Shown in pieces: positions 1,473 through 56,195 of a DNA stretch of 64,000 bases. The stretch is from NCBI RefSeq assembly GCF_013315695.1, contig NZ_CP054353.1; one strand, written 5' to 3'. Below the pieces are notes generated by a model. The model did not search any database, was not told the origin of the DNA, and worked only from the letters and a program-made list of their open reading frames with translations. The position numbers and the translations under genes were made by a program. Source of the stretch: Escherichia coli (GTDB lineage: Bacteria > Pseudomonadota > Gammaproteobacteria > Enterobacterales > Enterobacteriaceae). How positions within the stretch are numbered: the stretch's first letter is position 1; every line of letters starts with the position of its first letter.

Positions 1473-1818
1473 ACTTTCTTTAACGAAGCCGGAAAAATCC
1501 TAAATTCATTTATTATTTATCTTTTTACCGTTTCGCTTACCCCTGTCGAACGTCAACTTACGTCTTTTTTCCGCCCAACAGTAATATAATCAAACAAATT
1601 AATCCCGCAACATAACACCAGTAAAGTCAATAATTTTCTCTAAGTCACTTATTCCTCAGGCAATTGTTAATATATCCAGAATGTTCCTCAAAATATATTT
1701 TTCCTCTTTTTTCTCGTTACGCTTAATTTGACTAATTCTCATTTGCGACTAATTTTAATGAGTGTCGACACACAACACTCATATTAATCAAACAATGCAG
1801 CGCAACGGGAGAAATAAC

Positions 1819-1998
1819 ATGGCCGAACATCGTGGTGGTTCAGGAAATTTCGCCGAAGACCGTGAGAAGGCATCCGACGCAGGCCGTAAAGGCGGTCAGC
1901 ATAGCGGCGGTAATTTTAAAAATGATCCGCAACGCGCATCTGAAGCAGGTAAAAAATGCGGTCAACAAAGCGGTGGTAATAAATCAGGAAAATCCTGA
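1819..1998 (+). CDS. yciG: small KGG-repeat stress protein
   Basis: 59-aa product MAEHRGGSGNFAEDREKASDAGRKGGQHSGGNF...; GGGAG 8 nt upstream; the ORF-track ORF starts earlier at 1762. Confidence 0.8.
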   Translation: MAEHRGGSGNFAEDREKASDAGRKGGQHSGGNFKNDPQRASEAGKKCGQQSGGNKSGKS

Positions 1999-2083
1999 TT
2001 CACCGTTCATTATTAATATCAGCTGATAAAGATAATTGCATCTGCGGGCCGTATGGCTCGCAGTGATTTCACTGGAGAAAAAT

Positions 2084-2584
2084 ATGAATATGAAGACCAT
2101 TGAAGATGTATTTATTCACCTGCTTTCAGACACCTACAGTGCAGAAAAACAATTAACACGTGCACTGGCAAAACTCGCTAGAGCAACATCAAACGAAAAA
2201 TTAAGTCAGGCTTTTCATGCGCACCTCGAGGAAACACATGGACAGATTGAACGTATTGATCAAGTTGTGGAATCAGAATCGAATCTGAAAATTAAGCGCA
2301 TGAAATGTGTGGCAATGGAAGGTCTTATTGAAGAAGCTAATGAGGTCATCGAAAGTACCGAGAAAAACGAAGTGCGTGATGCCGCACTGATTGCCGCAGC
2401 ACAGAAAGTCGAGCATTATGAGATTGCCAGTTACGGGACATTAGCGACGCTGGCTGAACAATTAGGTTACCGTAAAGCAGCTAAGCTTCTGAAAGAAACT
2501 CTTGAAGAAGAAAAGGCCACCGACATCAAACTAACTGATCTGGCCCTTAATAACGTAAATAAGAAAGCCGAAAATAAAGCCTGA
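2084..2584 (+). CDS. yciF: ferritin-like stress protein YciF
   Basis: 166-aa product from MNMKTIEDVFIHLLSDTYSAEKQ...; ORF-track ORF extends upstream to 2036. Confidence 0.85.
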   Translation: MNMKTIEDVFIHLLSDTYSAEKQLTRALAKLARATSNEKLSQAFHAHLEETHGQIERIDQVVESESNLKIKRMKCVAMEGLIEEANEVIESTEKNEVRDAALIAAAQKVEHYEIASYGTLATLAEQLGYRKAAKLLKETLEEEKATDIKLTDLALNNVNKKAENKA

Positions 2585-2629
2585 AATATGAACTTTAACT
2601 TTTAGTCATTTTATAAAGAGGACATTTTC

Positions 2630-2921
2630 ATGAATCGTATTGAACATTATCATGACTGGTTACGTGACGCCCACGCAATGGAAAAGCAAGCCGAATCTAT
2701 GCTTTAATCCATGGCCAGCCGTATAGATAATTATCCTGAACTACGCGCTCGTATTGAACAACATCTTAGTGAAACCAAAAACCGATTGTTCAACTGGAAA
2801 CTATTCTTGATCGTAATGACATTTCACGTTCAGTCATTAAAGATTCCATGAGTAAAATGGCTGCGCTTGGGCAGTCAATCGGTGGTATATTTCCTTCTGA
2901 TGAAATAGTCAAAGGCTCTAT
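2630..2921 (+). pseudogene. yciE: yciE remnant: in-frame stop, -1 frameshift and truncation by IS1
   Basis: ATG at 2630 gives MNRIEHYHDWLRDAHAMEKQAESML then TAA at 2705-2707; same frame continues SMASRIDNYPELRARIEQHLSETKN; homologous reading resumes in another frame (VQLETILDRNDISRSVIKDSMSKMAALGQSIGGIFPSDEIVKGS) and runs into the IS1 end at 2922. Confidence 0.7.
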
Positions 2922-2976
2922 GGTGATGCTGCCAACTTACTGATTTAGTGTATGATGGTGTTTTTGAGGTGCTCCA

Positions 2977-3252
2977 GTGGCTTCTGTTTCTATCAGCTGT
3001 CCCTCCTGTTCAGCTACTGACGGGGTGGTGCGTAACGGCAAAAGCACCGCCGGACATCAGCGCTATCTCTGCTCTCACTGCCGTAAAACATGGCAACTGC
3101 AGTTCACTTACACCGCTTCTCAACCCGGTACGCACCAGAAAATCATTGATATGGCCATGAATGGCGTTGGATGCCGGGCAACAGCCCGCATTATGGGCGT
3201 TGGCCTCAACACGATTTTACGTCACTTAAAAAACTCAGGCCGCAGTCGGTAA
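2977..3252 (+). CDS. insA: IS1 InsA
   Basis: 91-aa product [39 protein letters not shown]... Confidence 0.95.
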
Positions 3253-5293: not shown

Positions 5294-5566
5294 ATGGACA
5301 ATAACACCATTTCTCTACAGGAGTTGCTCGACAGCATTTCCAGGCTTCGGGAAGACGTGAATACCCTTACCGTCGCCTTCTCATATCTGGCATTCTCAAT
5401 TCCAAGGGAACAGATGCAATCAACGCTGGCATCAATCCAGTTTGAATCATGCAATCCCAAATGGTCTCAGGAACAACAAGACTCTTTCAGGCGGCTTGCT
5501 GTATTACTGGATGAAAAATATGCTGGTAAAATTACCATTTCGGCGGACTCTTCAGAGAACCCGTAA
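5294..5566 (+). CDS. hypothetical protein (90 aa), opposite strand to the lysis genes
   Basis: ATG with GAGGA 6 nt upstream; no recognised domain; 3' end overlaps the convergent 114-aa ORF by 35 bp. Confidence 0.4.
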   Translation: MDNNTISLQELLDSISRLREDVNTLTVAFSYLAFSIPREQMQSTLASIQFESCNPKWSQEQQDSFRRLAVLLDEKYAGKITISADSSENP

Positions 5567-5876
5567 TTATTCCCGGTAGTTTTCCTCTGTAGGTTATCAA
5601 CACATCCTGCGCCTCTAAAATTACGGGGCGCTTTTCCGGCGACTGCTCATCCCCTTCACATAACCCGGCAGCAACATCCAGGAAGACCTGTCTGATGCTC
5701 CTTCTGGCTGCTGCCTCATAAAACTCCAGCGCGGCACCTTCAACACGGTCCAGCGAGATGTCCAGGTCAAAAATTTCACCGTCAAAGCGTTTTTTGTCCC
5801 GTAACGCTAAAGTTACCGTAACTTTATTCTCAAAATTGCGGATCCCTTTCACAATCAGTTCATAGTTTTGAGTCAT
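5532..5876 (-). CDS. hypothetical protein (114 aa) immediately downstream of the holin
   Basis: ATG 4 nt after the holin stop with GGGGAGAG as SD; soluble-looking product MTQNYELIVKGIRNFENKV...; no recognised domain. Confidence 0.55.
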   Translation of the reverse strand: MTQNYELIVKGIRNFENKVTVTLALRDKKRFDGEIFDLDISLDRVEGAALEFYEAAARRSIRQVFLDVAAGLCEGDEQSPEKRPVILEAQDVLITYRGKLPGIITGSLKSPPKW

Positions 5877-5880
5877 TGAA

Positions 5881-6096
5881 TTACTCTCCCCGTGCAGCCT
5901 TACGACGGTCCTCTCTGATTTTGAAATACAGGTTAGTCAGATATGTCAGCAGCCCAAACAGCAGACTCCCCAGCACGCCTATTGCCGCCCACTGAGACGG
6001 GGAAACCCTGTCCAGCAACTGCAGGAACCAGTAGCCCGTTCCCACCGCTGACGTGGTGTATGACACACCTGTTGTGATTTTTTCCATCTGGTACAT
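5881..6096 (-). CDS. class II pinholin, phage-21 S-like, dual start (71-aa and 68-aa forms)
   Basis: [13 protein letters not shown]... with two in-frame Met codons 3 codons apart (starts at 6096 and 6087); two TM segments; C-terminus ...[14 protein letters not shown]; ORF-track ORF extends to 6174. Confidence 0.8.
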
Positions 6097-6131
6097 ACCC
6101 CGTCTCCCGTTATCCGGAAGCTGACAACAAT

Positions 6132-6162
6132 AAAAAAAGCCACCAGTTAAGTACTGATGGCT
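6132..6162 (-). terminator. intrinsic terminator between esterase and holin
   Basis: On the minus strand, a 10-bp stem (one mismatch) followed by TTTTTTTATT. Confidence 0.45.
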
Positions 6163-6246
6163 CTGATAACTCATGCAGGCATCTCAGACGACCCACTGAC
6201 ACTACCGGTGAGTTTAACGATACCTTCCATTTGGCTGGCTCACTTT

Positions 6247-8100
6247 TTATGATGATGCCGGTGCATTTATCTCCAGCACCAGACTTTCTATCTCAACGCC
6301 ATACGCTGCATTTTTGGTAATATCCGTCAGCGTCAGCGCATTCAGCCCCAGTGTCAGACTGTCTTTTATGACCTGGAATGCCGGGCCAGCCACTCCATTC
6401 AGTTTCGGAGTAACCGTGGCACTGCCGGCGGTGAACACCAGCTCCAGCGTCTGCCAGTCGTTACTGTAATTCCCGAACTCGCCCAACTTTGTGTTTCCTG
6501 CTTTCTTGTGATGCATCAGATTCAGTTTGCCGTCTGTGGTCTGGGTGAAGAACGACATCAGGAACGGGTTACCAGTCCCGGTCATCGCCACGACGTCAGG
6601 TAACGCTACATCGGTATACAGATAAATTCCCAGACCGAACTGGTTGTTGGTCAGTGCGCCTGACAGTCGAAACTTACAGCTCAGTCTGCCACCCCGTGTC
6701 AGCAGGGAGACTGCGTCATCCACCGGGCGCGTCAGGGACCAGGCTTTATTGCTCTGCTTGGTGATCTTAAATACACCATCTGACAACTGAATTCCGCCAT
6801 TCTTAATGCTCCAGCCCTGCGCAGCAGCGTCTCCGGCTGTCGGCAACAGGGAGATTGTGCGTATGGATGCATCTTCAGACGGCCCCGATGGCGTGTCGCC
6901 GCCGGGCGAGGGTTTGATTTCCGGTGCCTTACCACTAATGAAGGCTAAGGTGCGACCGGCTACGTTCAGAATAGCAGTTGCCATACGATCGGGAATAATG
7001 CCACGACGCGCCCATGAGCTGAAATGCGTCGGGCGATTTGATGATACCCAGTTTTTGTTCGTTCGGGATGCCGAACCGTAATAACCAGACCCGGCAATAT
7101 CAGGATCTTCTGACGGGTTGTTTGTCGGTGTATTAACTCCGCTACCATCGGTCATAAAGGGAACAAAATAAATCTGCTGGGATTCTTTACCTTTATATGC
7201 ACCATATACCACTTCATATTGCGTACCGTGTTCTTGTTTCCACGCGTATGTCGTGTCGCCACAAATCCAGGGGACTGATGCCGGACTTCCACCGTGACAC
7301 TGCGCCGCCAGCCCGGCAAGGTCAGCACGGAACTGCTGTACCATTGCAAGAAATGCTGCTGGCTGCTGGGCGTAACTGGCATTCGTCATATCGAATTCCC
7401 CCTGCATCCAGCATATCGCCAGCAAAACGTTTTTCGGGTTTTTCTGCAATGCTGCCTTCGTGCGGAAAAGCAGATCCTGATATAACGGCTTACCCACTCC
7501 CCAGCGAGCCGAATCCTGACTGGCTCCCGTGGACTCGCTGAATGTCCCCTCCGTGCCCTGGGTGAATGCCGAACCACCACGACAGCATGGTACCAGCAGG
7601 ATCCCCGCATTATTAGGGATATACGGAAGCAGTTTTTTGGCAATATGTAAGCCCTGTCCGACACAGCCGTACTGCCCTTTGCTCAGGTCAGCCCGGGGAT
7701 GGTTAATCGTACTCATATCCTGAACATCATGCAGACAATGGTCAGCAGGAATGATGTCGTTAAATACGCATACTTCACCACCGGGAGTCACTGTGTTACG
7801 ACGGGCCAGTTGCTTAATGCGCGGATGGGGCGCATCGTATGAATCCGGAAGCGGAAGCCCTTCACCGTAAGCCATGGCATTGGATTGCCCGGCCAGTACG
7901 ATGACGTAGTACCACTCCGGCTCAGTTGCACCACTGACGACCACATCACCTTCTGCTGCAATCGCCTGCATCAGGGTATAAGGGGTTATGGCCACCGGAC
8001 TACCAAACGGCTGCCAGCCCTCCTTCAGTTTTTGTGTCAGTCGTTTCGCAAGGTCTGACGGCGATGCCGCCCTGACCACGTCATAGTGTTTAAATGCCAT
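6247..8100 (-). CDS. prophage sialate O-acetylesterase-like SGNH hydrolase (NanS-p-like)
   Basis: 617-aa product; LAGQSNAMAYGEG block typical of SASA/SGNH esterases; GGGAGGA SD 5 nt upstream; position between tRNA genes and holin as in Stx-type lambdoid phages. Confidence 0.65.
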   Translation of the reverse strand: MAFKHYDVVRAASPSDLAKRLTQKLKEGWQPFGSPVAITPYTLMQAIAAEGDVVVSGATEPEWYYVIVLAGQSNAMAYGEGLPLPDSYDAPHPRIKQLARRNTVTPGGEVCVFNDIIPADHCLHDVQDMSTINHPRADLSKGQYGCVGQGLHIAKKLLPYIPNNAGILLVPCCRGGSAFTQGTEGTFSESTGASQDSARWGVGKPLYQDLLFRTKAALQKNPKNVLLAICWMQGEFDMTNASYAQQPAAFLAMVQQFRADLAGLAAQCHGGSPASVPWICGDTTYAWKQEHGTQYEVVYGAYKGKESQQIYFVPFMTDGSGVNTPTNNPSEDPDIAGSGYYGSASRTNKNWVSSNRPTHFSSWARRGIIPDRMATAILNVAGRTLAFISGKAPEIKPSPGGDTPSGPSEDASIRTISLLPTAGDAAAQGWSIKNGGIQLSDGVFKITKQSNKAWSLTRPVDDAVSLLTRGGRLSCKFRLSGALTNNQFGLGIYLYTDVALPDVVAMTGTGNPFLMSFFTQTTDGKLNLMHHKKAGNTKLGEFGNYSNDWQTLELVFTAGSATVTPKLNGVAGPAFQVIKDSLTLGLNALTLTDITKNAAYGVEIESLVLEINAPASS

Positions 8101-8294
8101 GAATCCTCCCGGGCGGGATAATGTTGTGAGTCAGATAAGGAGCAGGCTGAAGTCCGGAAGTTACAGGACAATGGCAGAAGGGAGACTACAGCCCGCAATT
8201 CGAAAAAGACCGCGCAGTTGCGCAGAGTGATTACTATGGGGTATTATTCGCCAGCTGAAATATTACTTCACGTTTTATTGTTTATTCCTTGCCG

Positions 8295-8322
8295 CCCGCG
8301 TCTCCCAGCGCGGGCTTTTTTT
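8295..8322 (+). terminator. plus-strand intrinsic terminator
   Basis: CCCGCG-loop-CGCGGG hairpin followed by a T7 run. Confidence 0.4.
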
Positions 8323-8325
8323 GTC

Positions 8326-8562
8326 CATAAGAAAGCCCCTCCGGAGAGGGGCTAAAGCCGCGTATCTGTATCATCATGCACATGGTGCCGGGTGCCTCCC
8401 GGTGAGTTCAGCCCGGTGCCACTAAACCCGCGTCATTCTCGTTTTGATAATCAGAGATTATACCGTCACCAGTCGCCCCTCCGCTCAGGGGGATTCACCA
8501 TGCGAAATTTTTTTAACAAATGCCCAGTCTGACAGGCAACTGTCAACTTACTGAATTGTGAG
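8326..8562. repeat. direct repeat copy A (about 237 bp) in the late operon
   Basis: Shares with copy B the blocks AAAGCCCCTCCGGAGAGGGGCT, CATGGTGCCGGGTGCCTCCCGGTGA, GCCCCTCCGC-CAGGGGGATTCACCATGC, TTTTAACAAA and CTGAATTGTGAG. Confidence 0.6.
8335..8352 (-). terminator. hairpin GCCCCTC-CGGA-GAGGGGC with downstream U-rich tract on the minus strand (repeat A)
   Basis: Perfect 7-bp GC stem; in minus orientation followed by TTTCTT. Confidence 0.45.
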
Positions 8563-8812
8563 CAACATAGCATTTAACGGGGAACCTGTTTTCTGCAGTA
8601 AAAAGGCCCACCGGAGCGGATGGGCCTGGAAGGATAGCGGTCATGTGATGCCGGTTTCCCGGTAACTCAGCACCGGTATCTGAGTCAACGTTTTCTCTAC
8701 TGGGTCATTTCCGATACGCCCTGCCTGCTGACAGGCTTTCATCACATCTGAAAATATAGCACCCTGACTGATACTGTAGTACCTAAGGTTCCAGAAACTG
8801 TGATGTATCCGG

Positions 8813-9038
8813 CACAGAAAAGCCCCTCCGGAGAGGGGCTGGAGAGTGGCGCTATGTGCCATTGCATGGTGCCGGGTGCCTCCCGGTGAATTCAGTACCA
8901 GCACCTGAATCCGCGATTATCCCATATACCTACTCGCTGATTGCCCCTCCGCACAGGGGGATTCACCATGCCAGTTTCTTTTAACAAACTCCCCGCAAAC
9001 CAGACAACAGTCAACCGCCTGAATTGTGAGACATTTAA
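8813..9038. repeat. direct repeat copy B
   Basis: Imperfect copy of repeat A about 480 bp away. Confidence 0.6.
8822..8839 (-). terminator. hairpin GCCCCTC-CGGA-GAGGGGC with downstream U-rich tract on the minus strand (repeat B)
   Basis: Same hairpin as copy A; in minus orientation followed by TTTTCT. Confidence 0.45.
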
Positions 9039-9074
9039 AAAAAGCCCGCAAAAGCGAGCCAGGGAAAATAAGTG

Positions 9075-9151
9075 TGGCGCGTTGTACTGGATTCGAACCA
9101 GTGACCGATTGCTTAGAAGGCAATTGCTCTGTCCGGCTGAGCTAACAACGC
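9075..9151 (-). tRNA. tRNA-Arg (anticodon UCU)
   Basis: Manual fold of the reverse complement: acceptor GCGTTGT/ACAACGC, D-arm GCTC/GAGC, anticodon stem ATTGC/GCAAT with loop CTTCTAA, T-arm ACTGG-TTCGAAT-CCAGT, discriminator G, CCA encoded. Confidence 0.8.
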
Positions 9152-9164
9152 AGGATACAGATAA

Positions 9165-9241
9165 TGGACCGCCTTCGGGGACCCGAACTCCGCGCAACCA
9201 GCTTCGAAAGCTGGCGCTCTTTCCTGATGAGCTAATGGCGG
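9165..9241 (-). tRNA. tRNA-like gene, Arg-type (anticodon UCG by manual fold), possibly degenerate
   Basis: D-arm TAGCTCATCAGGAAAGAGC, anticodon stem CCAGC/GCTGG with loop TTTCGAA, CCA encoded; one mismatch in the acceptor stem and one in the T stem; T-loop TTCGGGT is non-consensus. Confidence 0.5.
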
Positions 9242-9248
9242 TATGTGA

Positions 9249-9324
9249 TGGTGGCCCTTGCTGGATTTGAACCAGCGACCTGGCGATTATGAGTCGCTCG
9301 CTCTCACCACTGAGCTAAAGGGCC
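9249..9324 (-). tRNA. tRNA with CAU anticodon, ileX-like (tRNA-Ile2/lysidine type; could be Met)
   Basis: Acceptor GGCCCTT/AAGGGCC perfect, anticodon loop CTCATAA, T-arm GCTGG-TTCAAAT-CCAGC, discriminator A, CCA encoded; closely resembles E. coli ileX from memory. Confidence 0.8.
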
Positions 9325-9373
9325 GGGAGCAGAATAATAATGGTGCGTAATTAATTCTGCAATCTCATCCGTT

Positions 9374-10423
9374 TCAAACGATTAAATCCTGAACTTCCCT
9401 GACTGTCTGCTCAAAACGTCCGGTCTCCAGTTCAACGCCAATCGCACGACGCCCAAGCGCCAGTGCCGCTTTTACCGTTGAACCTGAGCCCATAAAAAAA
9501 TCTGCAACCAGGTCACCCGGACGACTGCTTGCGCTGATTATCTGCTGCAGCATTTCTGCCGGTTTTTCGCACGGATGTTTCCCGGGATAGAACTGCACCG
9601 GTTTATGTGTCCACACATCCGTGTACGGCACCTGCGCCGTCACACCAAAATACCGCCGCAGATGCTTATATTCACTCTGCAGCTCCACATACTGCCGGTT
9701 CAGTGACGTATACGTATCCACCAGCTGGTGGTGGGGCTTTTCCAGTTCACCGCGCTGATGTTTCTCTTCTGCCACCCGGGCAAACAGCGACTGTAATTTC
9801 AGATAATCGCTTTCGTTCGGTAGCTGCCACTGACTGGCACTGAACCAGTGCGACACCATGTTTTTCTTTCCTGTGGCATCTGCAATCTGTTTTGCCGTTA
9901 TCCCCAGGGCAGCGCGCGCATCACGAAAGTAAGAAATCAGCGGGGCCATCACATGCTGTTTCAGTGCACTGCCCTTCGCCGCATACCCGGCATCTTTCGG
10001 ACGATACGGCCCCTGATAATGTTCCGCGAACAGAATGCGCTCTGTGGCGGGGAAATACGCCCGCAGGCTTTCCTTGTTGCATCCGTTCCAGCGTCCGGAC
10101 GGCTTCGCCCAGATAATATGGTTCAGCACACTGAAGCGTTCACGCATCATGATTTCGATATCAGATGCCAGGCGATGACCACAGAACAGGTAAAGACTTC
10201 CGACAGGTTTCAGCACCCGCCAGAACTGCGCCAGACACTGGTCCAGCCACTTCAGGTAATCATCGTCGCCCTTCCACTGGTTATCCCAGCCCTCAGGCTT
10301 CACTTTAAAGTACGGCGGGTCCGTGACTATCAGGTCAACAGAATTTTCGGGTAACGACCGGATAAATTCCAGGCAGTCGGCGTTGATTAACTCACAACTG
10401 GATATTTTTACAGTATTAAGCAT
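9374..10423 (-). CDS. orphan DNA methyltransferase (beta-class N6-adenine/N4-cytosine type)
   Basis: 349-aa product with catalytic DPPY motif near the N-terminus (LIVTDPPYF) and AdoMet motif FFMGSGST near the C-terminus; no adjacent restriction endonuclease gene. Confidence 0.8.
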   Translation of the reverse strand: MLNTVKISSCELINADCLEFIRSLPENSVDLIVTDPPYFKVKPEGWDNQWKGDDDYLKWLDQCLAQFWRVLKPVGSLYLFCGHRLASDIEIMMRERFSVLNHIIWAKPSGRWNGCNKESLRAYFPATERILFAEHYQGPYRPKDAGYAAKGSALKQHVMAPLISYFRDARAALGITAKQIADATGKKNMVSHWFSASQWQLPNESDYLKLQSLFARVAEEKHQRGELEKPHHQLVDTYTSLNRQYVELQSEYKHLRRYFGVTAQVPYTDVWTHKPVQFYPGKHPCEKPAEMLQQIISASSRPGDLVADFFMGSGSTVKAALALGRRAIGVELETGRFEQTVREVQDLIV

Positions 10424-10561
10424 GGATCATTAAGCCTGTCTCTGATAGGCTCATTCTGCTTTTGCGCAAAGCAGTGGGCCTGAGGTTTGCTTGTGAACCC
10501 AACGCATGAGCAGATGGCTGGTGGGTGCCCCTAACACCCACCAGCCGCCCATTTACCACAA

Positions 10562-10587
10562 ATAAAAAAGCCTTCAGGACTGAAGGC
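10562..10587 (-). terminator. intrinsic terminator after the 65-aa ORF
   Basis: Minus-strand hairpin GCCTTCAG-TC-CTGAAGGC followed by TTTTTTATTT; stem overlaps the last codons of the upstream ORF. Confidence 0.55.
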
Positions 10588-10771
10588 GTCTGTAACAACC
10601 GAACTGATAGTCTGCCAGACCCGCCATAACCAGCTGGGTCAGTATTAACTGGCAGCGTTCGCGTGAAAGGTAAGTATTCTGCGCTATCTCCCCGACTGTC
10701 GCCGGTTCGGTAACGCTTAATTCATTAAACACCACTCTGGCGGTTTCTGTCATATCCTGCTGTTTTAGCAT
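10574..10771 (-). CDS. small winged-helix-like protein (65 aa)
   Basis: ATG at 10771 preceded by AAGGAAAAAG; product MLKQQDMTETARVVFNELSVTEPATVGEIAQNTYLSRERCQLILTQLVMAGLADY...; ORF-track ORF extends to 10858. Confidence 0.45.
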   Translation of the reverse strand: MLKQQDMTETARVVFNELSVTEPATVGEIAQNTYLSRERCQLILTQLVMAGLADYQFGCYRRLQS

Positions 10772-10902
10772 GTCTTTTTCCTTTTTCCGGTTAACGTGAC
10801 ATACCAATAACTCTTGTCGAAAAAGCCAGCAAGCTGAAAGACCCGTATTCGCAACCACCAGCGTGTTTACTGTACTGACGCGATTTTGGGCATAAAAAAA
10901 AA

Positions 10903-10925
10903 CCGCCTGACGGCAGTTTTTTTTC
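10903..10925 (-). terminator. bidirectional intrinsic terminator just downstream of Q (tR'-like)
   Basis: Short GC hairpin CUGCC-GUCA-GGCGG flanked by A8 and T9 runs. Confidence 0.5.
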
Positions 10926-10929
10926 TTAC

Positions 10930-10985
10930 TTTGCCATCGCGTACAAAATCGGCAAAATATCAGATTTATATGAAACGTACGCTAT
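10930..10985 (-). promoter_or_regulatory. candidate late promoter PR' region
   Basis: Minus-strand TATAAA hexamer about 20 nt after the Q stop with weak TCAATT 17 nt upstream; position analogous to lambda PR'; not verified. Confidence 0.25.
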
Positions 10986-11675
10986 TTAATTGACTTTTGC
11001 AATATCTCGTCGTGAAAAAGTCGCTTTTTGTTGCGCTCTTATTTTCACGGTGCAAATCACAGATTCTCTATCGAGACTCTTAAAAATATCGCACATCTCA
11101 CGCCAGTAGTTCGCATAATTATGGCTCCAGTTATCAGGCTTAACTCCACACAGTCTGGCAAGCTCCTGTCTCTGGTAGACCTCACACCCGGTAATCCATC
11201 CTCTGACATCCTGTGCCGCCAGCCAGATCAACTTCTTCACGCGCTCCTGCGTTTTCCCTGCAATTTTTCTGGTGCCGTACCGGGTTTTAAATTCATTCCA
11301 CACCCACTGCGTTATCGCGATCTGATATTCCCAACAAATACTCCCGCTGTAACACCACAACAACCAGGCTTTATGATGTTCTTCAAGAGACAGAACAGCC
11401 CGCCGCCACGATGATGTCGAAAACTCAACCGGACTGACGAGAGGAATTGACACCCCCTTCGCCAGCGATTGCTTTCCCGGGATTGGTGGATTATCCCGCG
11501 TTATCATTTTTCCAGTCACTTCATCGCGGTACCGGATTTTTTTACGCCTGTAACGCCCTGTATCAAACATGGCATTCTCCTGCCAGGCCTCAAGCTGCCC
11601 TTTTGTTGATCCACTCAAATCGGCGGTGGCAATCATGAGTTGCTCACGAACAAACTGTAAATACTGGTTATTCAT
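10986..11675 (-). CDS. putative late-gene antiterminator Q
   Basis: 229-aa ORF in the canonical position (after rusA, before the terminator-rich late operon); Cys-rich central region; the family assignment is by position and my recall only. Confidence 0.55.
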   Translation of the reverse strand: MNNQYLQFVREQLMIATADLSGSTKGQLEAWQENAMFDTGRYRRKKIRYRDEVTGKMITRDNPPIPGKQSLAKGVSIPLVSPVEFSTSSWRRAVLSLEEHHKAWLLWCYSGSICWEYQIAITQWVWNEFKTRYGTRKIAGKTQERVKKLIWLAAQDVRGWITGCEVYQRQELARLCGVKPDNWSHNYANYWREMCDIFKSLDRESVICTVKIRAQQKATFSRRDIAKVN

Positions 11676-12037
11676 GCGTACTCCAGTTCTGTGATTTTTA
11701 TCCCCAACCGCCCACCAGGAACAAGCTGACCGCGCACAATATTAATTTCATCAAACTGCTCGTCGTCTATGAGCAGCCCCGCATGCGTCAGTACATCCAG
11801 TGGTGCCTTCAGGATATTGTCCAGGTCACGACGGCGCTTATCCGGTGGCTCTGCAATAATTTCTATTGCCGGCCTTCCGGACAGGTTTAATTTCAGTTGC
11901 TGCTGGCGAACAATAAGCGCCACATCACGGCGATAACGCTCACCGACTTTTGATACAAAATATGTGCTGCCACGACGTCGCCAGTAAGTGTTCACCGTTG
12001 GCGGGTAAGGCAAAACAAATTCTATGCGTTCAGTCAT
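11672..12037 (-). CDS. rusA: RusA-type Holliday junction resolvase
   Basis: 121-aa product MTERIEFVLPYPPTVNTYWRRRG...DKRRRDLDNILKAPLDVLTHAGLLIDDEQ... matches the RusA pattern. Confidence 0.8.
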   Translation of the reverse strand: MTERIEFVLPYPPTVNTYWRRRGSTYFVSKVGERYRRDVALIVRQQQLKLNLSGRPAIEIIAEPPDKRRRDLDNILKAPLDVLTHAGLLIDDEQFDEINIVRGQLVPGGRLGIKITELEYA

Positions 12038-13093
12038 TTATGCTTTCCACTTCAGAACACCCGAATTTCTCGCGTGCATTAAAAAACGAATCAGCAACAA
12101 CAGCTGGCTGCCGTGTTTTTCTTCAAAATCTTTTACCCCGGCGTGTAGTTCGCTATGGCATTTACGGCACAGCGGAATAACAAACAAATCATCAGCCTTT
12201 GTTCCCATCCCTCCCAGTCCATGACCAATGATGTGATGCGGATCATCTGCCTGATTGCCACACGTCATGCATTTCTGCGTTTTTACCCAACGCGTGTATA
12301 CAGGCATCTCTTCCCGTTGTGATTTCTGGCGCTGGAGATACTGAGCCGGTGACTCCGGATCAACGGCAATGCTGACCACCGTCTTTTCCTGTGGCGGGTT
12401 TTGCTGGTGGGCGTGAGGCAGCGGCGCAAGATTTTTTGTGCGCTGCTTCAGTATGCTGGTGGCGGTCTGCTCTCCCGGTACGATGTCGCTTTCACGGTAC
12501 ATTGAGCGGATTTTTTCCGCACGCAACCCCAGCGAACGACGTAATACCGCTTCCGGTAGCGCGTCCGCCACCTGATTGCGGACCGCCCACCAGGATAATT
12601 CAGCCAGCGATAATTCCCGTTCCTGCGAGCCATTCATTGCATGGCGTATGACGTCAATCATCCATGCAGACAGGTTTTGGTGAGCAAGTTGCCCGAGTGA
12701 TTCGGAGGTCTGGTCGCGCAGCTGGTTGTCGCAGTGCCAGCACAACACCATTGCGCCGGTACCATAACGGTGAATGACGGTTTCACTGTGGTGATAATCG
12801 CCGTGTGGCCACTGGCAGGATTTAACATGGCGCAGTAACCAGTCAGACAATGCGCCAGCGCCACCAGCAGCACGAATCACTCGTTCGTCGCTGAAAAATG
12901 GCAGTAATGATTTATCCTCCGCCAGCGGCTGGCGAACGGCAGGAACGACCCCGGACGGCAGATTACGCATGCTTTTCGGTTCCGGCTCCACCAGTACCCG
13001 GGTATTGTGGAATACCGGCATGGATTCACGGCCCGGCTTAACGATCACCAGCCCGAGTTCCGGTACCAGAACAGGTCGAAGTAATACCCGCAC
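12038..13093 (-). CDS. DUF968-type phage protein (YdfU-like) with C-terminal HNH/zinc-finger-like motif
   Basis: 351-aa product; C-terminal CMTCGNQADDPHHIIGHG...CRKCHSELH motif. Confidence 0.6.
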   Translation of the reverse strand: MRVLLRPVLVPELGLVIVKPGRESMPVFHNTRVLVEPEPKSMRNLPSGVVPAVRQPLAEDKSLLPFFSDERVIRAAGGAGALSDWLLRHVKSCQWPHGDYHHSETVIHRYGTGAMVLCWHCDNQLRDQTSESLGQLAHQNLSAWMIDVIRHAMNGSQERELSLAELSWWAVRNQVADALPEAVLRRSLGLRAEKIRSMYRESDIVPGEQTATSILKQRTKNLAPLPHAHQQNPPQEKTVVSIAVDPESPAQYLQRQKSQREEMPVYTRWVKTQKCMTCGNQADDPHHIIGHGLGGMGTKADDLFVIPLCRKCHSELHAGVKDFEEKHGSQLLLLIRFLMHARNSGVLKWKA

Positions 13094-13534: not shown

Positions 13535-13690
13535 TTACTCCTCAGGTTCGTAAGCTGTGAAGACAGCGACCTCCGTCTGGCCGGTTCGGAGTCGTACCTC
13601 GCAGAGGTCTTTCCTCGTTACCAGTGCCGTCACTATGACGGTTAAACAGATGACGATCAGGGCGATTAACATCGCCTTTTGCTGCTTCAT
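13535..13690 (-). CDS. hok: Hok/Gef-family type I toxin (HokD-like)
   Basis: 51-aa product MKQQKAMLIALIVICLTVIVTALVTRKDLCEVRLRTGQTEVAVFTAYEPEE; the ORF-track ORF carries a 19-codon in-frame upstream extension. Confidence 0.85.
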   Translation of the reverse strand: MKQQKAMLIALIVICLTVIVTALVTRKDLCEVRLRTGQTEVAVFTAYEPEE

Positions 13691-13927
13691 AGCCTGCTTC
13701 CCCTTGCCTTTCGGCACGTAAGAGGCTAACCTACATTTGTGAGACATAGATTGGGCCTCAGATTAATGTTAAGCGTCTTGCAGGACGCGAAATGTTAACT
13801 GGGGCTTTTCTCTATCTGCCTTTCAGTGTTCATGCCTGAGACAGATAGCCTCAAGCACCCGCAGCCATTCTACTTAACTCACGTCACCTCGCCAATATGA
13901 AATCAATCAGAAAGGTGATCCATAAAA

Positions 13928-20017: not shown

Positions 20018-20588
20018 TTCACCCTCCTGAGGGTTGGTAATTAAGGAGTTCTCCACGGGTCAGGTGGAGTGCGTGCGCCGGACACGGGTGAGCATCCGGC
20101 ACTGACAGCTTACTGAAAGGATATGTCCCTGAAAAGTCAGGGCATAACGCGAAAGCGCACGGCGAAATTGGTCTCTCTGTACGGTGTCGTTAAATTTAGT
20201 TCGACCGTGCGCTTCCGGTTGTGGCACTCCGCGAAATGGCGCGGCGGTAAGTATGGCTGGGGTTTCCTCCATTGCTCCAGAAAATGCACCGGGTTGTCAG
20301 GTTGACCATACGCTTAAGTGACAACCCCGCTACAACGCCCTCTGTTATCAATTTTCTGGTGACATTTGGCGGTATCAGTTTTACTCCGTGACTGCTCTGC
20401 CGCCCTTTTTAAAGTGAATTTTGTGATGCGGTGAATGCGGCTATGCGCACGCGGAACAGTTAAAGCAGTAAGGCGGTATTTTACGGGCGTAACGAGCATC
20501 AACTAACCCGGCGTTAATTGTTAACTGGTTAACGTCACCTGGAGGCACCAGGCACTGCATCACAAAATTCATTGTTGAGGACGCGATA

Positions 20589-32550: not shown

Positions 32551-33473
<923 letters not shown>

Positions 33474-55992: not shown

Positions 55993-56076
<84 letters not shown>

Positions 56077-56110
56077 TCTCAAGCATTACCTCAAAATTTG
56101 AATTACCCTT

Positions 56111-56195
<85 letters not shown>

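Follow-up and report, generated by a model that had tools for sequence, protein, structure and literature searches.

Pairs of small RNAs at the moron site of lambdoid prophages (AsxR/EcOnc27 and AgvB/EcOnc06) were described in 2014 (Tree et al., PMC4104026; reviewed in PMC7873438). Each of these dyads combines an STnc100-type RNA on the sense strand with an Hfq-binding anti-sRNA of 51–60 nt on the opposite strand, with abutting terminators, located between pR' and the lysis genes, the antisense partner being convergent to the STnc100-type RNA and upstream of the esterase gene (cf. L004 3128/3130). The STnc100 group includes EcOnc05, EcOnc06, EcOnc13 and EcOnc27 of EHEC Sakai and sRNA103 of EDL933, which share a core structure and a position between Q and the tRNAs on one side and the esterase and lysis genes on the other. 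EcOnc05, EcOnc27 and sRNA103 have been detected by northern blot and Hfq-CRAC (PMC4104026, PMC7873438), STnc100-type homologues are bound by Hfq (PMC4104026, PMC7873438, PMC12711010), and fimZ, espA and stxB have been linked to such RNAs only by overexpression or in silico (PMC7873438, PMC12370729). For the PasD RNAs of EPEC (Pearl Mizrahi 2021), a common origin with STnc100 was concluded in a 2026 preprint (Zhu, Shabalina and Storz); PasD relatives form many RIL-seq chimeras (PMC8550237). In Stx-converting phages, stxA and stxB lie between argO and a segment containing STnc100 and the esterase gene, Stx2 phages carrying stx2AB together with one STnc100 copy. The locus analyzed here is the interval (the slot) between the tRNA genes and the esterase gene of a lambdoid prophage in a 64,000-nt stretch of Escherichia coli DNA (the window). 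The small-RNA cluster in this slot is of an already known kind, to which the tandem layout of three units (A-B-C) and the middle unit itself (unit B) are minor additions.

Gene order around the slot

The late phage genes of the window are on the minus strand, and their order was confirmed as Q, DNA methyltransferase, tRNA-Ile2(CAT), tRNA-Arg, tRNA-Arg, slot, esterase with DUF1737 and SASA domains, holin and endolysin. ARAGORN and Rfam tRNA matches placed tRNA-Ile2 (anticodon CAT) at 9324-9249, tRNA-Arg (TCG) at 9241-9165 and tRNA-Arg (TCT) at 9151-9075, all on the minus strand; these three genes (9075..9324) are the ileZ-argN-argO set of lambdoid and Stx phages, and the RefSeq annotation of a 99.9%-identical prophage in strain CE10 likewise reads tRNA-Ile, Arg, Arg. 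Beyond the slot, on the same strand, follow a gene for a NanS-p-type esterase of 617 aa (6247..8100; Pfam DUF1737, SASA and DUF6645), a holin gene (6096-5881) and an endolysin gene (5188-4655), the latter two, like Q, identified with PHROGs and in agreement with the CE10 RefSeq annotation. The backbone of Stx-converting phages (Q, ileZ-argN-argO, NanS-p esterase, holin, endolysin) is thus present in the order of the Stx2a phage Stx2_95 and of Sakai Sp5, where stx2AB is flanked by this tRNA trio and this esterase, as a preliminary description of the Q-tRNA-cargo-esterase-lysis architecture had recognized. The toxin locus has no counterpart here: neither stxA nor stxB was found among the ORFs here, and the stx2 segment of Stx2_95 (L001 2170-3504) had no counterpart. 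The view that the slot holds no credible ORF was confirmed, all ORFs of at least 60 aa that touch the slot having GTG or TTG starts and overlapping tRNA or sRNA genes. The slot had been called empty apart from two repeats, which it is not: three or four small-RNA genes appear to be the cargo themselves.

STnc100-family units on the minus strand

Two imperfect direct repeats had been noted at 8326-8562 and 8813-9038. They are real, their limits lying within a few bases of the units defined by conservation (8325-8562 and 8812-9030), and they share collinear blocks of 88 nt with 80% identity (8475-8562/8943-9030), 31 nt with 97% identity (8381-8411/8865-8895) and 22 nt with 100% identity (8332-8353/8819-8840). 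The elements reported within them are likewise present in the sequence, namely the GCCCCTC/GAGGGGC hairpins (8335-8352, 8822-8839), the CCGGG-TGCCT-CCCGG hairpins (8389-8403, 8873-8887) and the conserved GGGGGATTCACCATG blocks (8488-8502, 8956-8970). In a search of 7 kb, both repeats matched the STnc100 model of Rfam (RF02076) over its full length (positions 1-206), copy A (9030-8812) with 136.3 bits (E = 7.8e-31) and copy C (8562-8325) with 165.4 bits (E = 2.7e-38). With scores above the curated gathering score (GA) of 47 bits, copies A and C are assigned to the STnc100 family.

Copy A (8812..9030, minus strand, ~219 nt) is of the EcOnc05 type and extends from the invariant 5' sequence CUCACAAUUCAG to a terminator (T1). 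The northern probe for EcOnc05 matched it at 8908-8942 without mismatches and the EcOnc06 probe with one mismatch. Its length of 219 nt compares with 217 nt in Sakai Sp4 and with a northern size of ~222 nt for EcOnc05, and unit lengths of 217–241 nt agree with northern sizes of ~222 nt and ~235/247 nt (PMC4104026 Table S2). The pseudo-CDS that PGAP places opposite copy A in CE10 was judged to be an artefact. Copy C (8325..8562, minus strand, ~238 nt) is of the EcOnc27/sRNA103 type. The window at 8561-8081 is 91% identical to the segment after stx2B in Stx2_95 (L001 3505-3989), which likewise contains an Rfam STnc100 match (160 bits); there, the repeat begins a few tens of bases past stx2B. In Sakai Sp5, the STnc100 match encloses the EcOnc27 probe. 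By this homology, copy C is identified as the RNA located just downstream of stx2B in Stx2a phage, known as EcOnc27 or sRNA103. The earlier reading that the repeats fill the place of stx holds only in part: copy A plus unit B (9032-8562) take the place of the stx2 promoter and stx2AB (L001 2170-3504 in Stx2_95), but copy C is shared with Stx2 phages, where it lies just after stx2B. With an identity of only 64% to each other, copies A and C represent two alleles and not a fresh duplication.

Both copies end at the GCCCCUCUCCGGAGGGGC hairpin. A consensus scan found no minus-strand sigma-70-like promoter in 7900-9500, so the 5' ends of copies A and C were placed by conservation and by the northern sizes of homologues. 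Weak -10-like hexamers were visible by eye 6–7 nt upstream of CACAAUUC. Expression of the window copies, their 5' ends and their targets are putative and assigned by analogy with the homologues.

Forty distinct units, drawn from the window as well as from E. coli genomes, phage records and IMG/VR contigs, were aligned with MAFFT and gave an RNAalifold consensus of 36 pairs with 99.7% of cells paired. The STnc100 consensus structure (closing helix, three internal hairpins and terminator) was recovered, the conserved core consisting of a closing helix GCAUGGUG/CACCAUGC that encloses the three hairpins. Compensatory changes supported 6 pairs, compared with 1.3 ± 1.0 in shuffled alignments (none of 500 reached 6), and slid controls gave no more than 3. 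One covarying pair, G-C in 20 sequences and A-U in 19, separates copy C from copy A within the window. Minimum free energy (MFE) folds of copies A and C both recovered the consensus helices, and folding z-scores were modest (-1.5 to -1.9) and not decisive alone. Across the 40 units, 5', central and 3' modules were variously combined, a mosaicism that fits recombination at the conserved blocks.

PasD1 and PasD2 of EPEC have the 5' core GCAUGGUGAAUCCCCC ... CACCGGGAGGCACCCGGCACCAUG in common with the window copies, as well as a position upstream of the esterase or holin gene. In PasD, this STnc100-like core is continuous with a different 3' domain, in which the seed UGUGAG directly precedes a CUGCGCAUGGCGCGG terminator, whereas the GCCCCUC terminator closes copies A and C, which lack a UGUGAG seed, and the terminator homologous to that of PasD (T4, see below) stands separately. 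On the minus strand, UGUGAG was not found before T4. EPEC prophage PP2, which carries PasD2, aligned only over 8989-8932 of the window (76%). As to a relation with IpeX/DLP12, the Q-nmpC-lysis region of K-12 had no STnc100 match at gathering level.

The interval between copies A and C contains unit B (8598..8771, minus strand), which resembles STnc100 but is very divergent and has a terminator of its own (T2). It scored 30.1 bits with RF02076 (E = 3.9e-05 in a 231-nt search), below the GA of 47, and was not counted as a member. Its covariance-model alignment spans model positions 1-206 with the closing helix, P3, P4 and the terminator kept; the family structure was not recovered in its MFE fold. 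Unit B was 86% identical in only 5 phage records, and in IMG/VR loci it was always located ~305 nt past an A-type copy. Whether it is expressed as an RNA is uncertain, and any activity would be conjectural. This divergent third unit (8771-8598) had not been part of the preliminary description, nor had a plus-strand terminator (8294-8322) and two minus-strand terminators (9060-9043 and 8225-8210).

Terminators and a putative convergent antisense RNA

A terminator scan detected 10 terminator-like sites in 7900-9500, compared with 1.8 ± 1.4 in shuffled sequences; this excess and the STnc100 E-values place the repeats and terminators far beyond chance. Five minus-strand terminators (T0–T4) lie between the tRNAs and the esterase gene. 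T0 (9036..9060, hairpin 9060-9043; GGCTCGC-TTTT-GCGGGCT then T7) directly follows the last tRNA, its segment being 85% identical to the post-argO segment of Stx2_95 and Sakai Sp5, and copy A begins 6 nt past its T-run. T1 (8840-8821 and a U-tail) ends copy A, the strong T2 (8627-8604 and T5) ends unit B, and T3 (8353-8334) ends copy C. T4 (8203..8225, hairpin 8225-8210; CTGCGCAACTGCGCGG followed by TCTTTTT) is the last terminator before the esterase leader and was kept in alignments with Sakai Sp5, Stx2_95 and EPEC PP6. On the basis of a similar hairpin (GGCTGCGCATGGCGCGGC then T8) that closes the Sp11 unit and PasD, T4 is considered homologous to the terminator closing PasD/EcOnc04-type RNAs. 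The plus-strand terminator (8294-8322, hairpin 8294-8315 and U7) belongs to a convergent antisense sRNA.

This plus-strand RNA (~8130..8322, with a predicted 5' end) is assigned, by alignment, as a homologue of an Hfq-associated sRNA, EcOnc08/21/42 of EHEC (Sakai Sp4) and E2348C_1409.E2348C_1408.IGR of EPEC. It aligned closely over its full length with the EPEC PP6 locus (89.8% identity by blastn for the wider segment 8411-8081), and the 35-nt EcOnc08/21/42 probe had 5 mismatches at its position in the window, 8214-8248. Immediately 5' of the terminator hairpin, GCCCGCG..CGCGGGC with a U-tail, is the seed CCUUGCC (8286-8292), which is complementary to GGCAAGG, the target motif of the EPEC RNA, which has an estimated length of 182 nt by RNA-seq and whose top RIL-seq partners are the 5'UTRs of cfa and dppA (PMC8550237 supplement). 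Seed, terminator and location opposite the esterase leader are shared with the EPEC and EHEC homologues, from which the predicted window RNA differs by a few substitutions. Its 3' end abuts that of copy C, the plus-strand terminator occupying 8294-8322 and copy C ending at 8323, so that the two form a dyad of the kind described at the lambdoid moron site, arranged as in L004 3128/3130.

A promoter scan identified a candidate sigma-70 promoter (8094..8122, plus strand; ATGCCA, 17-nt spacer, GATAAT), which we infer to be that of the antisense sRNA. Its predicted start (~8129-8131) is ~10 nt from the equivalent of the EPEC start determined by RNA-seq, its -35 hexamer overlaps the start codon of the esterase gene on the opposite strand, and both hexamers are kept in EPEC PP6 and Sakai Sp5. 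From its position the plus-strand element was expected to be AsxR or AgvB, which was rejected: RF02702 and RF02703 gave no match in 8101-8340 at E ≤ 10, nor in 5500-12500 at E ≤ 1, AsxR of Sakai Sp5 scored 88 bits as a positive control, and the sequence is unlike published AsxR/AgvB. The latter have a 42-nt conserved 3' region (..GUAUCUCAUGC.AUUGCCCGAACCCA.UCGGGC UUUU) that the family models do not detect here, the partner in this slot being of the longer EcOnc08/21/42 type. A match to OmrA-B at 8234-8322 (25 bits, GA 40) was driven by the terminator and does not make this RNA a member.

Distribution and interpretation of the cluster

Sequences with 100% identity to the slot occur in CE10, in APEC O18 and in many further non-STEC E. 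coli. Among 5426 complete E. coli genomes, 2869 contained some part of it and 352 at least 80%, and the A-B-C tandem form was present in ~6% of complete genomes; the same A-B-C spacing was found in 9 of 120 IMG/VR loci. One STnc100 copy is present in Sakai Sp4 and EPEC PP6, compared with two intact copies and one divergent unit in tandem, without protein cargo, in the window. One-copy (Sakai Sp4, EPEC PP6), stx-bearing and three-unit versions have identical flanks. IS elements occurred in or beside units. Wider spacing in L041 and L042 had raised the suspicion that cargo inserts between unit B and copy C, which was discarded, the insert in L042 being an IS3-family element and not a moron. The preliminary description had considered that the repeats might be an ordinary conserved feature with no transcript, or part of a conserved coding frame. 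They are indeed an ordinary conserved feature, in toxigenic and non-toxigenic relatives alike, but their homologues are transcribed, as revealed by northern blots, Hfq-CRAC and RIL-seq (PMC4104026, PMC8550237), and no conserved coding frame spans the region.

Given the family membership, the structure backed by covariation, the homology to detected RNAs and the genomic distribution, we estimate a probability of roughly 85% that the slot is a cluster of prophage sRNA genes, with three STnc100-family units head to tail and a convergent EcOnc08/21/42-type sRNA, the most likely function being Hfq-dependent action in trans. In the lysogen, the RNAs would be made from their own weak promoters and stop at their own terminators, the hairpin and U-tail of which would form the Hfq-binding module, and they may pair in trans with mRNAs or sRNAs of the host and of prophages. 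The conserved core would act as a scaffold, and the variable parts (5' module, central module and 3' linker) would confer differing specificities. The five minus-strand terminators would in addition act as insulators, preventing expression of the esterase and lysis genes until antitermination, when RNA polymerase that started at pR' and was modified by Q transcribes past them.

The RNAs could also be largely by-products of terminators and recombination scaffolds. If the slot were nothing but a cis-acting stack of terminators that blocks read-through from tRNA and moron promoters into the esterase and lysis genes, there would be no trans product. The five minus-strand terminators are far above chance, Q-dependent read-through is the established logic of lambdoid late operons, and we know of no validated direct target of an STnc100-type RNA. 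Yet ~150 nt upstream of each terminator are conserved as a multi-helix core with compensatory changes, which termination alone would not require, homologues are found as discrete RNAs bound to Hfq (PMC4104026), and many RIL-seq chimeras contain PasD relatives (PMC8550237). Termination as the sole role is improbable; such a role is compatible with the sRNA explanation and does not replace it. Somewhat less improbable, though still unlikely, is that the conserved blocks serve as crossover points for the exchange of morons such as stx, the A-B-C array being a neutral by-product of unequal exchange. The different module combinations across the 40 units, the identical flanks of one-copy, stx-containing and three-unit versions and the IS elements argue for such exchange; the compensatory changes and the Hfq binding of homologues are left unexplained by it, and it accounts for the origin of the array and not for the role of the RNAs, being compatible with the sRNA explanation as well.

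A small protein encoded through unit B, by an 87-aa GTG ORF (8641-8904, minus strand) corresponding to a 55-aa CDS of PhiR5_2 (phrog_23557), is very improbable, and this frame was rejected as a credible gene here. Phrog_23557 matched at 4e-30, and over the last 40 residues the window and PhiR5_2 frames resemble each other, some of their codon differences being synonymous. However, the ATG of PhiR5_2 is ATA in the window, an internal ATG is without a Shine-Dalgarno sequence, the N-terminal half is not conserved, and a manual count over the conserved part gave ~4 synonymous versus 5 non-synonymous codon differences. Only 4 matching protein clusters were found among 5.8 billion, all short, from one narrow lineage and without a Pfam domain; the same stretch aligns across the whole STnc100 model, and in the CE10 prophage, which is 99.9% identical, a gene of this kind is absent from the RefSeq annotation.

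Within the sRNA explanation, it is a tentative and rather doubtful proposal that unit B is a functional, highly diverged third STnc100 paralogue and that A-B-C is a selected "sRNA cassette array", with one scaffold and three specificity modules in the place of the toxin. If it were true, the array and the convergent antisense RNA would constitute a moron made of RNA alone, through which the regulation of the host is rewired in non-toxigenic (e.g. ExPEC) lysogens. The toxin position of a common non-Stx lambdoid prophage is most likely occupied by regulatory RNA cargo of a curated Rfam family with Hfq-binding homologues in EHEC and EPEC, and is neither empty nor the site of an unknown structured element. 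Standard annotation pipelines leave such genes unmarked or overlay them with spurious pseudo-ORFs, the CE10 RefSeq record lacking any RNA feature from the end of the tRNAs to the esterase gene. The biological addition is small, and the mosaic of scaffold blocks and swappable modules may aid in finding the targets of EcOnc27/sRNA103 beside stx2.

Prophage architecture around the slot

The phage late genes occupy the minus strand of the window, where the Q antiterminator (11675-10986; phrog_304, E 7e-104) is followed by a DNA methyltransferase (10423-9374), three tRNA genes (tRNA-Ile2 (CAT), tRNA-Arg (TCG) and tRNA-Arg (TCT), 9324-9075), an interval referred to here as the slot (9074-8101), a 617-aa esterase with DUF1737, SASA and DUF6645 domains (8100-6247), and a holin and endolysin. 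This order matches the Stx-phage-like backbone proposed in the preliminary description, as stx2AB is flanked by the same tRNAs and esterase in the Stx2a phage Stx2_95 and in prophage Sp5 of strain Sakai. The absence of a toxin and of a credible ORF was likewise confirmed: the ORFs of at least 60 aa touching the slot have GTG or TTG start codons and share sequence with tRNA or RNA genes. Both repeats, their two hairpins and the GGGGGATTCACCATG block were found where they had been placed. What did not stand was the view that the slot is empty, as it contains two full-model matches to RF02076 (STnc100), a further, divergent unit and a plus-strand RNA candidate.

Over 15076-3690 the window shares 99.9% identity with a prophage of E. 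coli O7:K1 CE10, for which RefSeq gives the same annotation. In the CE10 copy an Rz-like lysis gene (L005 10719-11185, approximately window 4356-3890) is flagged as frameshifted, so the prophage may be defective. Other curated ncRNAs in the window are isrC (32619-32741, plus strand, 145 bits), a sok antitoxin adjoining hokD (13685-13860, minus strand, 120 bits) and DicF (20354-20405, plus strand, 77 bits); the prophage thus has several more regulatory RNAs. Immediately past the Q stop codon, 10853-10979 showed sub-threshold matches to STnc370 (plus strand) and to isrK-like and Phe-leader-like models (minus strand), as well as a GC hairpin with A and T runs on its flanks; the stretch probably represents the pR'-tR' region of short transcripts, which we take to be the position of StxS or lambda 6S RNA. 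Far from the late region, two tandem tRNA-Tyr(GTA) genes (55993-56195, plus strand) presumably represent the chromosomal tyrT-tyrV locus.

STnc100-type units and their structure

In the Rfam scan, the two RF02076 matches lie on the minus strand at 9000-8810 (136 bits) and 8532-8323 (165 bits; gathering score 47). Because conservation reaches about 30 nt further 5' than these matches, up to an invariant CUCACAAUUCAG, the units were delimited as copy A (9030-8812, 219 nt) and copy C (8562-8325, 238 nt). The copies are 64% identical overall, with 92-100% identity in the scaffold blocks vs 58%, 18% and 35% in the variable 5' module, central module and 3' linker, respectively. Antisense to copy A, the RefSeq record of CE10 has a partial pseudo 'hypothetical protein' (window 8856-8984, plus strand; L005 6094-6219), probably an annotation artefact; none of the sRNAs is annotated in that record.

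For the family structure, 120 IMG/VR loci were gathered by presence of the conserved block TGGTGAATCCCCCT, and 40 distinct full-length units (217-241 nt) from these, other fetched loci and the window were aligned. RNAalifold, run on the plain MAFFT alignment, recovered the Rfam architecture: an 8-bp closing helix (GCAUGGUG/CACCAUGC), a CCCCC/GGGGG hairpin, an 8-bp hairpin P3, a CCGGG-AGGCA-CCCGG hairpin and a terminator, with 99.7% of cells paired. Six pairs showed compensatory change, compared with 1.3 +/- 1.0 in column shuffles (0 of 500 reached six) and at most three in slid controls. In P3, one pair occurs as G-C in 20 sequences and as A-U in 19; exactly this compensated exchange separates copy C from copy A in the window. 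The 5', central and 3' modules combine differently from unit to unit, making the family a recombining mosaic.

Between the copies lies unit B (8771-8598, minus strand), overlooked in the preliminary description. It scores 30 bits against STnc100, below the threshold of 47 (E 3.9e-05 in a local search), and its model alignment covers all 206 positions, in which the closing helix persists in recoded form (AUGUGAUG/CAUCACAU), together with P3, a CCGG-GAAA-CCGG hairpin and a strong terminator; the family structure was not seen in its MFE fold. Unit B was found in only five phage records, and in the IMG/VR loci always some 305 nt behind a copy of the A type. Phage PhiR5_2 has a 55-aa CDS (phrog_23557) annotated across this unit, but it was rejected as a gene, because the window has ATA for ATG and there are only four narrow protein clusters.

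Experimentally detected relatives and the putative antisense RNA

Hfq-bound RNAs of EHEC Sakai were mapped by Tree et al. 2014 (PMC4104026). The northern probes for EcOnc05 (Sp4, ~222 nt) and EcOnc06 match copy A with zero and one mismatch, respectively, and that for the Hfq-dependent EcOnc27 (~235/247 nt), which is sRNA103 of EDL933 (PMC7873438, PMC12711010), lies within the STnc100 match just downstream of stx2B in Sp5. Judging from probe positions, EcOnc13 and EcOnc04 correspond to other family variants: the EcOnc13 probe is, as we read the alignment, the reverse complement of the 5' module of L121/L101-type units, and the EcOnc04 probe (~222 nt) falls immediately beyond the 3' side of the STnc100 core of Sakai Sp11 (L002 2160-2382). 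In this Sp11 unit the core is joined to a different 3' domain ending in GGCTGCGCATGGCGCGGC then T8, a PasD-like architecture that illustrates the relation between the PasD and STnc100 types. A 2026 preprint concluded that the EPEC sRNA PasD and STnc100 have a common origin, with STnc100 matches frequently flanking Pas sRNA genes in prophage and bacteriophage sequences alike (10.64898/2026.05.13.724894). The northern sizes are consistent with the unit lengths derived from conservation, and the copies in the window are presumably expressed, with 5' ends predicted from conservation and these sizes.

The plus-strand RNA candidate had likewise been overlooked. A strong plus-strand terminator (8294-8315 plus T7) directly adjoins copy C at its 3' end. 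A start near 8130 is predicted by a promoter-like site at 8094-8122 (ATGCCA, 17-nt spacer, GATAAT), and 8130-8322 aligns closely to the EPEC PP6 locus of an sRNA defined by RIL-seq, E2348C_1409.E2348C_1408.IGR (estimated 182 nt; target motif GGCAAGG; top partners the cfa and dppA 5'UTRs), noted at source as an EcOnc08/21/42 homologue. Its seed CCUUGCC, complementary to GGCAAGG, is kept in the window just ahead of the terminator. AsxR/AgvB was rejected as the plus-strand partner, its models having no match here vs 88 bits in Sp5. On the minus strand, copies A and C have CUCACAA at their 5' ends (9030-9024 and 8562-8556), and the esterase leader has it too (8130-8124); the related PasD (seed UGUGAG) has CUCACA as its RIL-seq target motif, and sRNA-sRNA or sRNA-leader pairing is conceivable.

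Distribution and proposed function

In Stx2_95 the segment after stx2B is 91% identical to window 8561-8081 (copy C, antisense RNA and leader), whereas L001 2170-3504, which carries the stx2 genes and their promoter, lies where the window has copy A and unit B (9032-8562); only these two replace stx2, and the claim that both repeats occupy the toxin position was not borne out. Sakai Sp4 and EPEC PP6 have a one-copy version (A-type copy, antisense RNA, esterase), the PP6 copy being split by ISEc13 (L006 about 1601-3150), with 8 bp apparently duplicated, as window 8956-8949 is present on either side. In one IMG/VR contig unit B is likewise followed by an IS3-family element (L042 3130-4286), so that IS elements occur inside or adjoining sRNA units. 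Among 5426 complete E. coli genomes, 352 carry 80% or more of the slot, many of them with 100% identity and CE10 and APEC O18 among them, and 2869 carry some part of it; the same 467-490 nt spacing was found in 9 of the 120 IMG/VR loci. The three-unit form is not rare.

The feature is already known, since the family is curated and its context has been described since 2014; to this, the A-B-C tandem arrangement and the divergent unit B add only a little. To our knowledge, no STnc100-type RNA has a validated direct target. Links to fimZ, espA and stxB come only from overexpression or in silico work (PMC7873438, PMC12370729).

The best-supported reading makes the slot a set of trans-acting, Hfq-dependent sRNA genes, possibly with an active unit B among them. 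Each ends in a hairpin and U-tail module and is built on the conserved scaffold, in which the specificity modules, directed at putative targets, can be swapped. With T0 after the tRNAs (9060-9043) and T4 ahead of the esterase leader (8225-8210), both overlooked previously, five minus-strand terminators stand in a row, and the stack may in addition keep the esterase and lysis genes insulated until it is read through by Q-modified polymerase.
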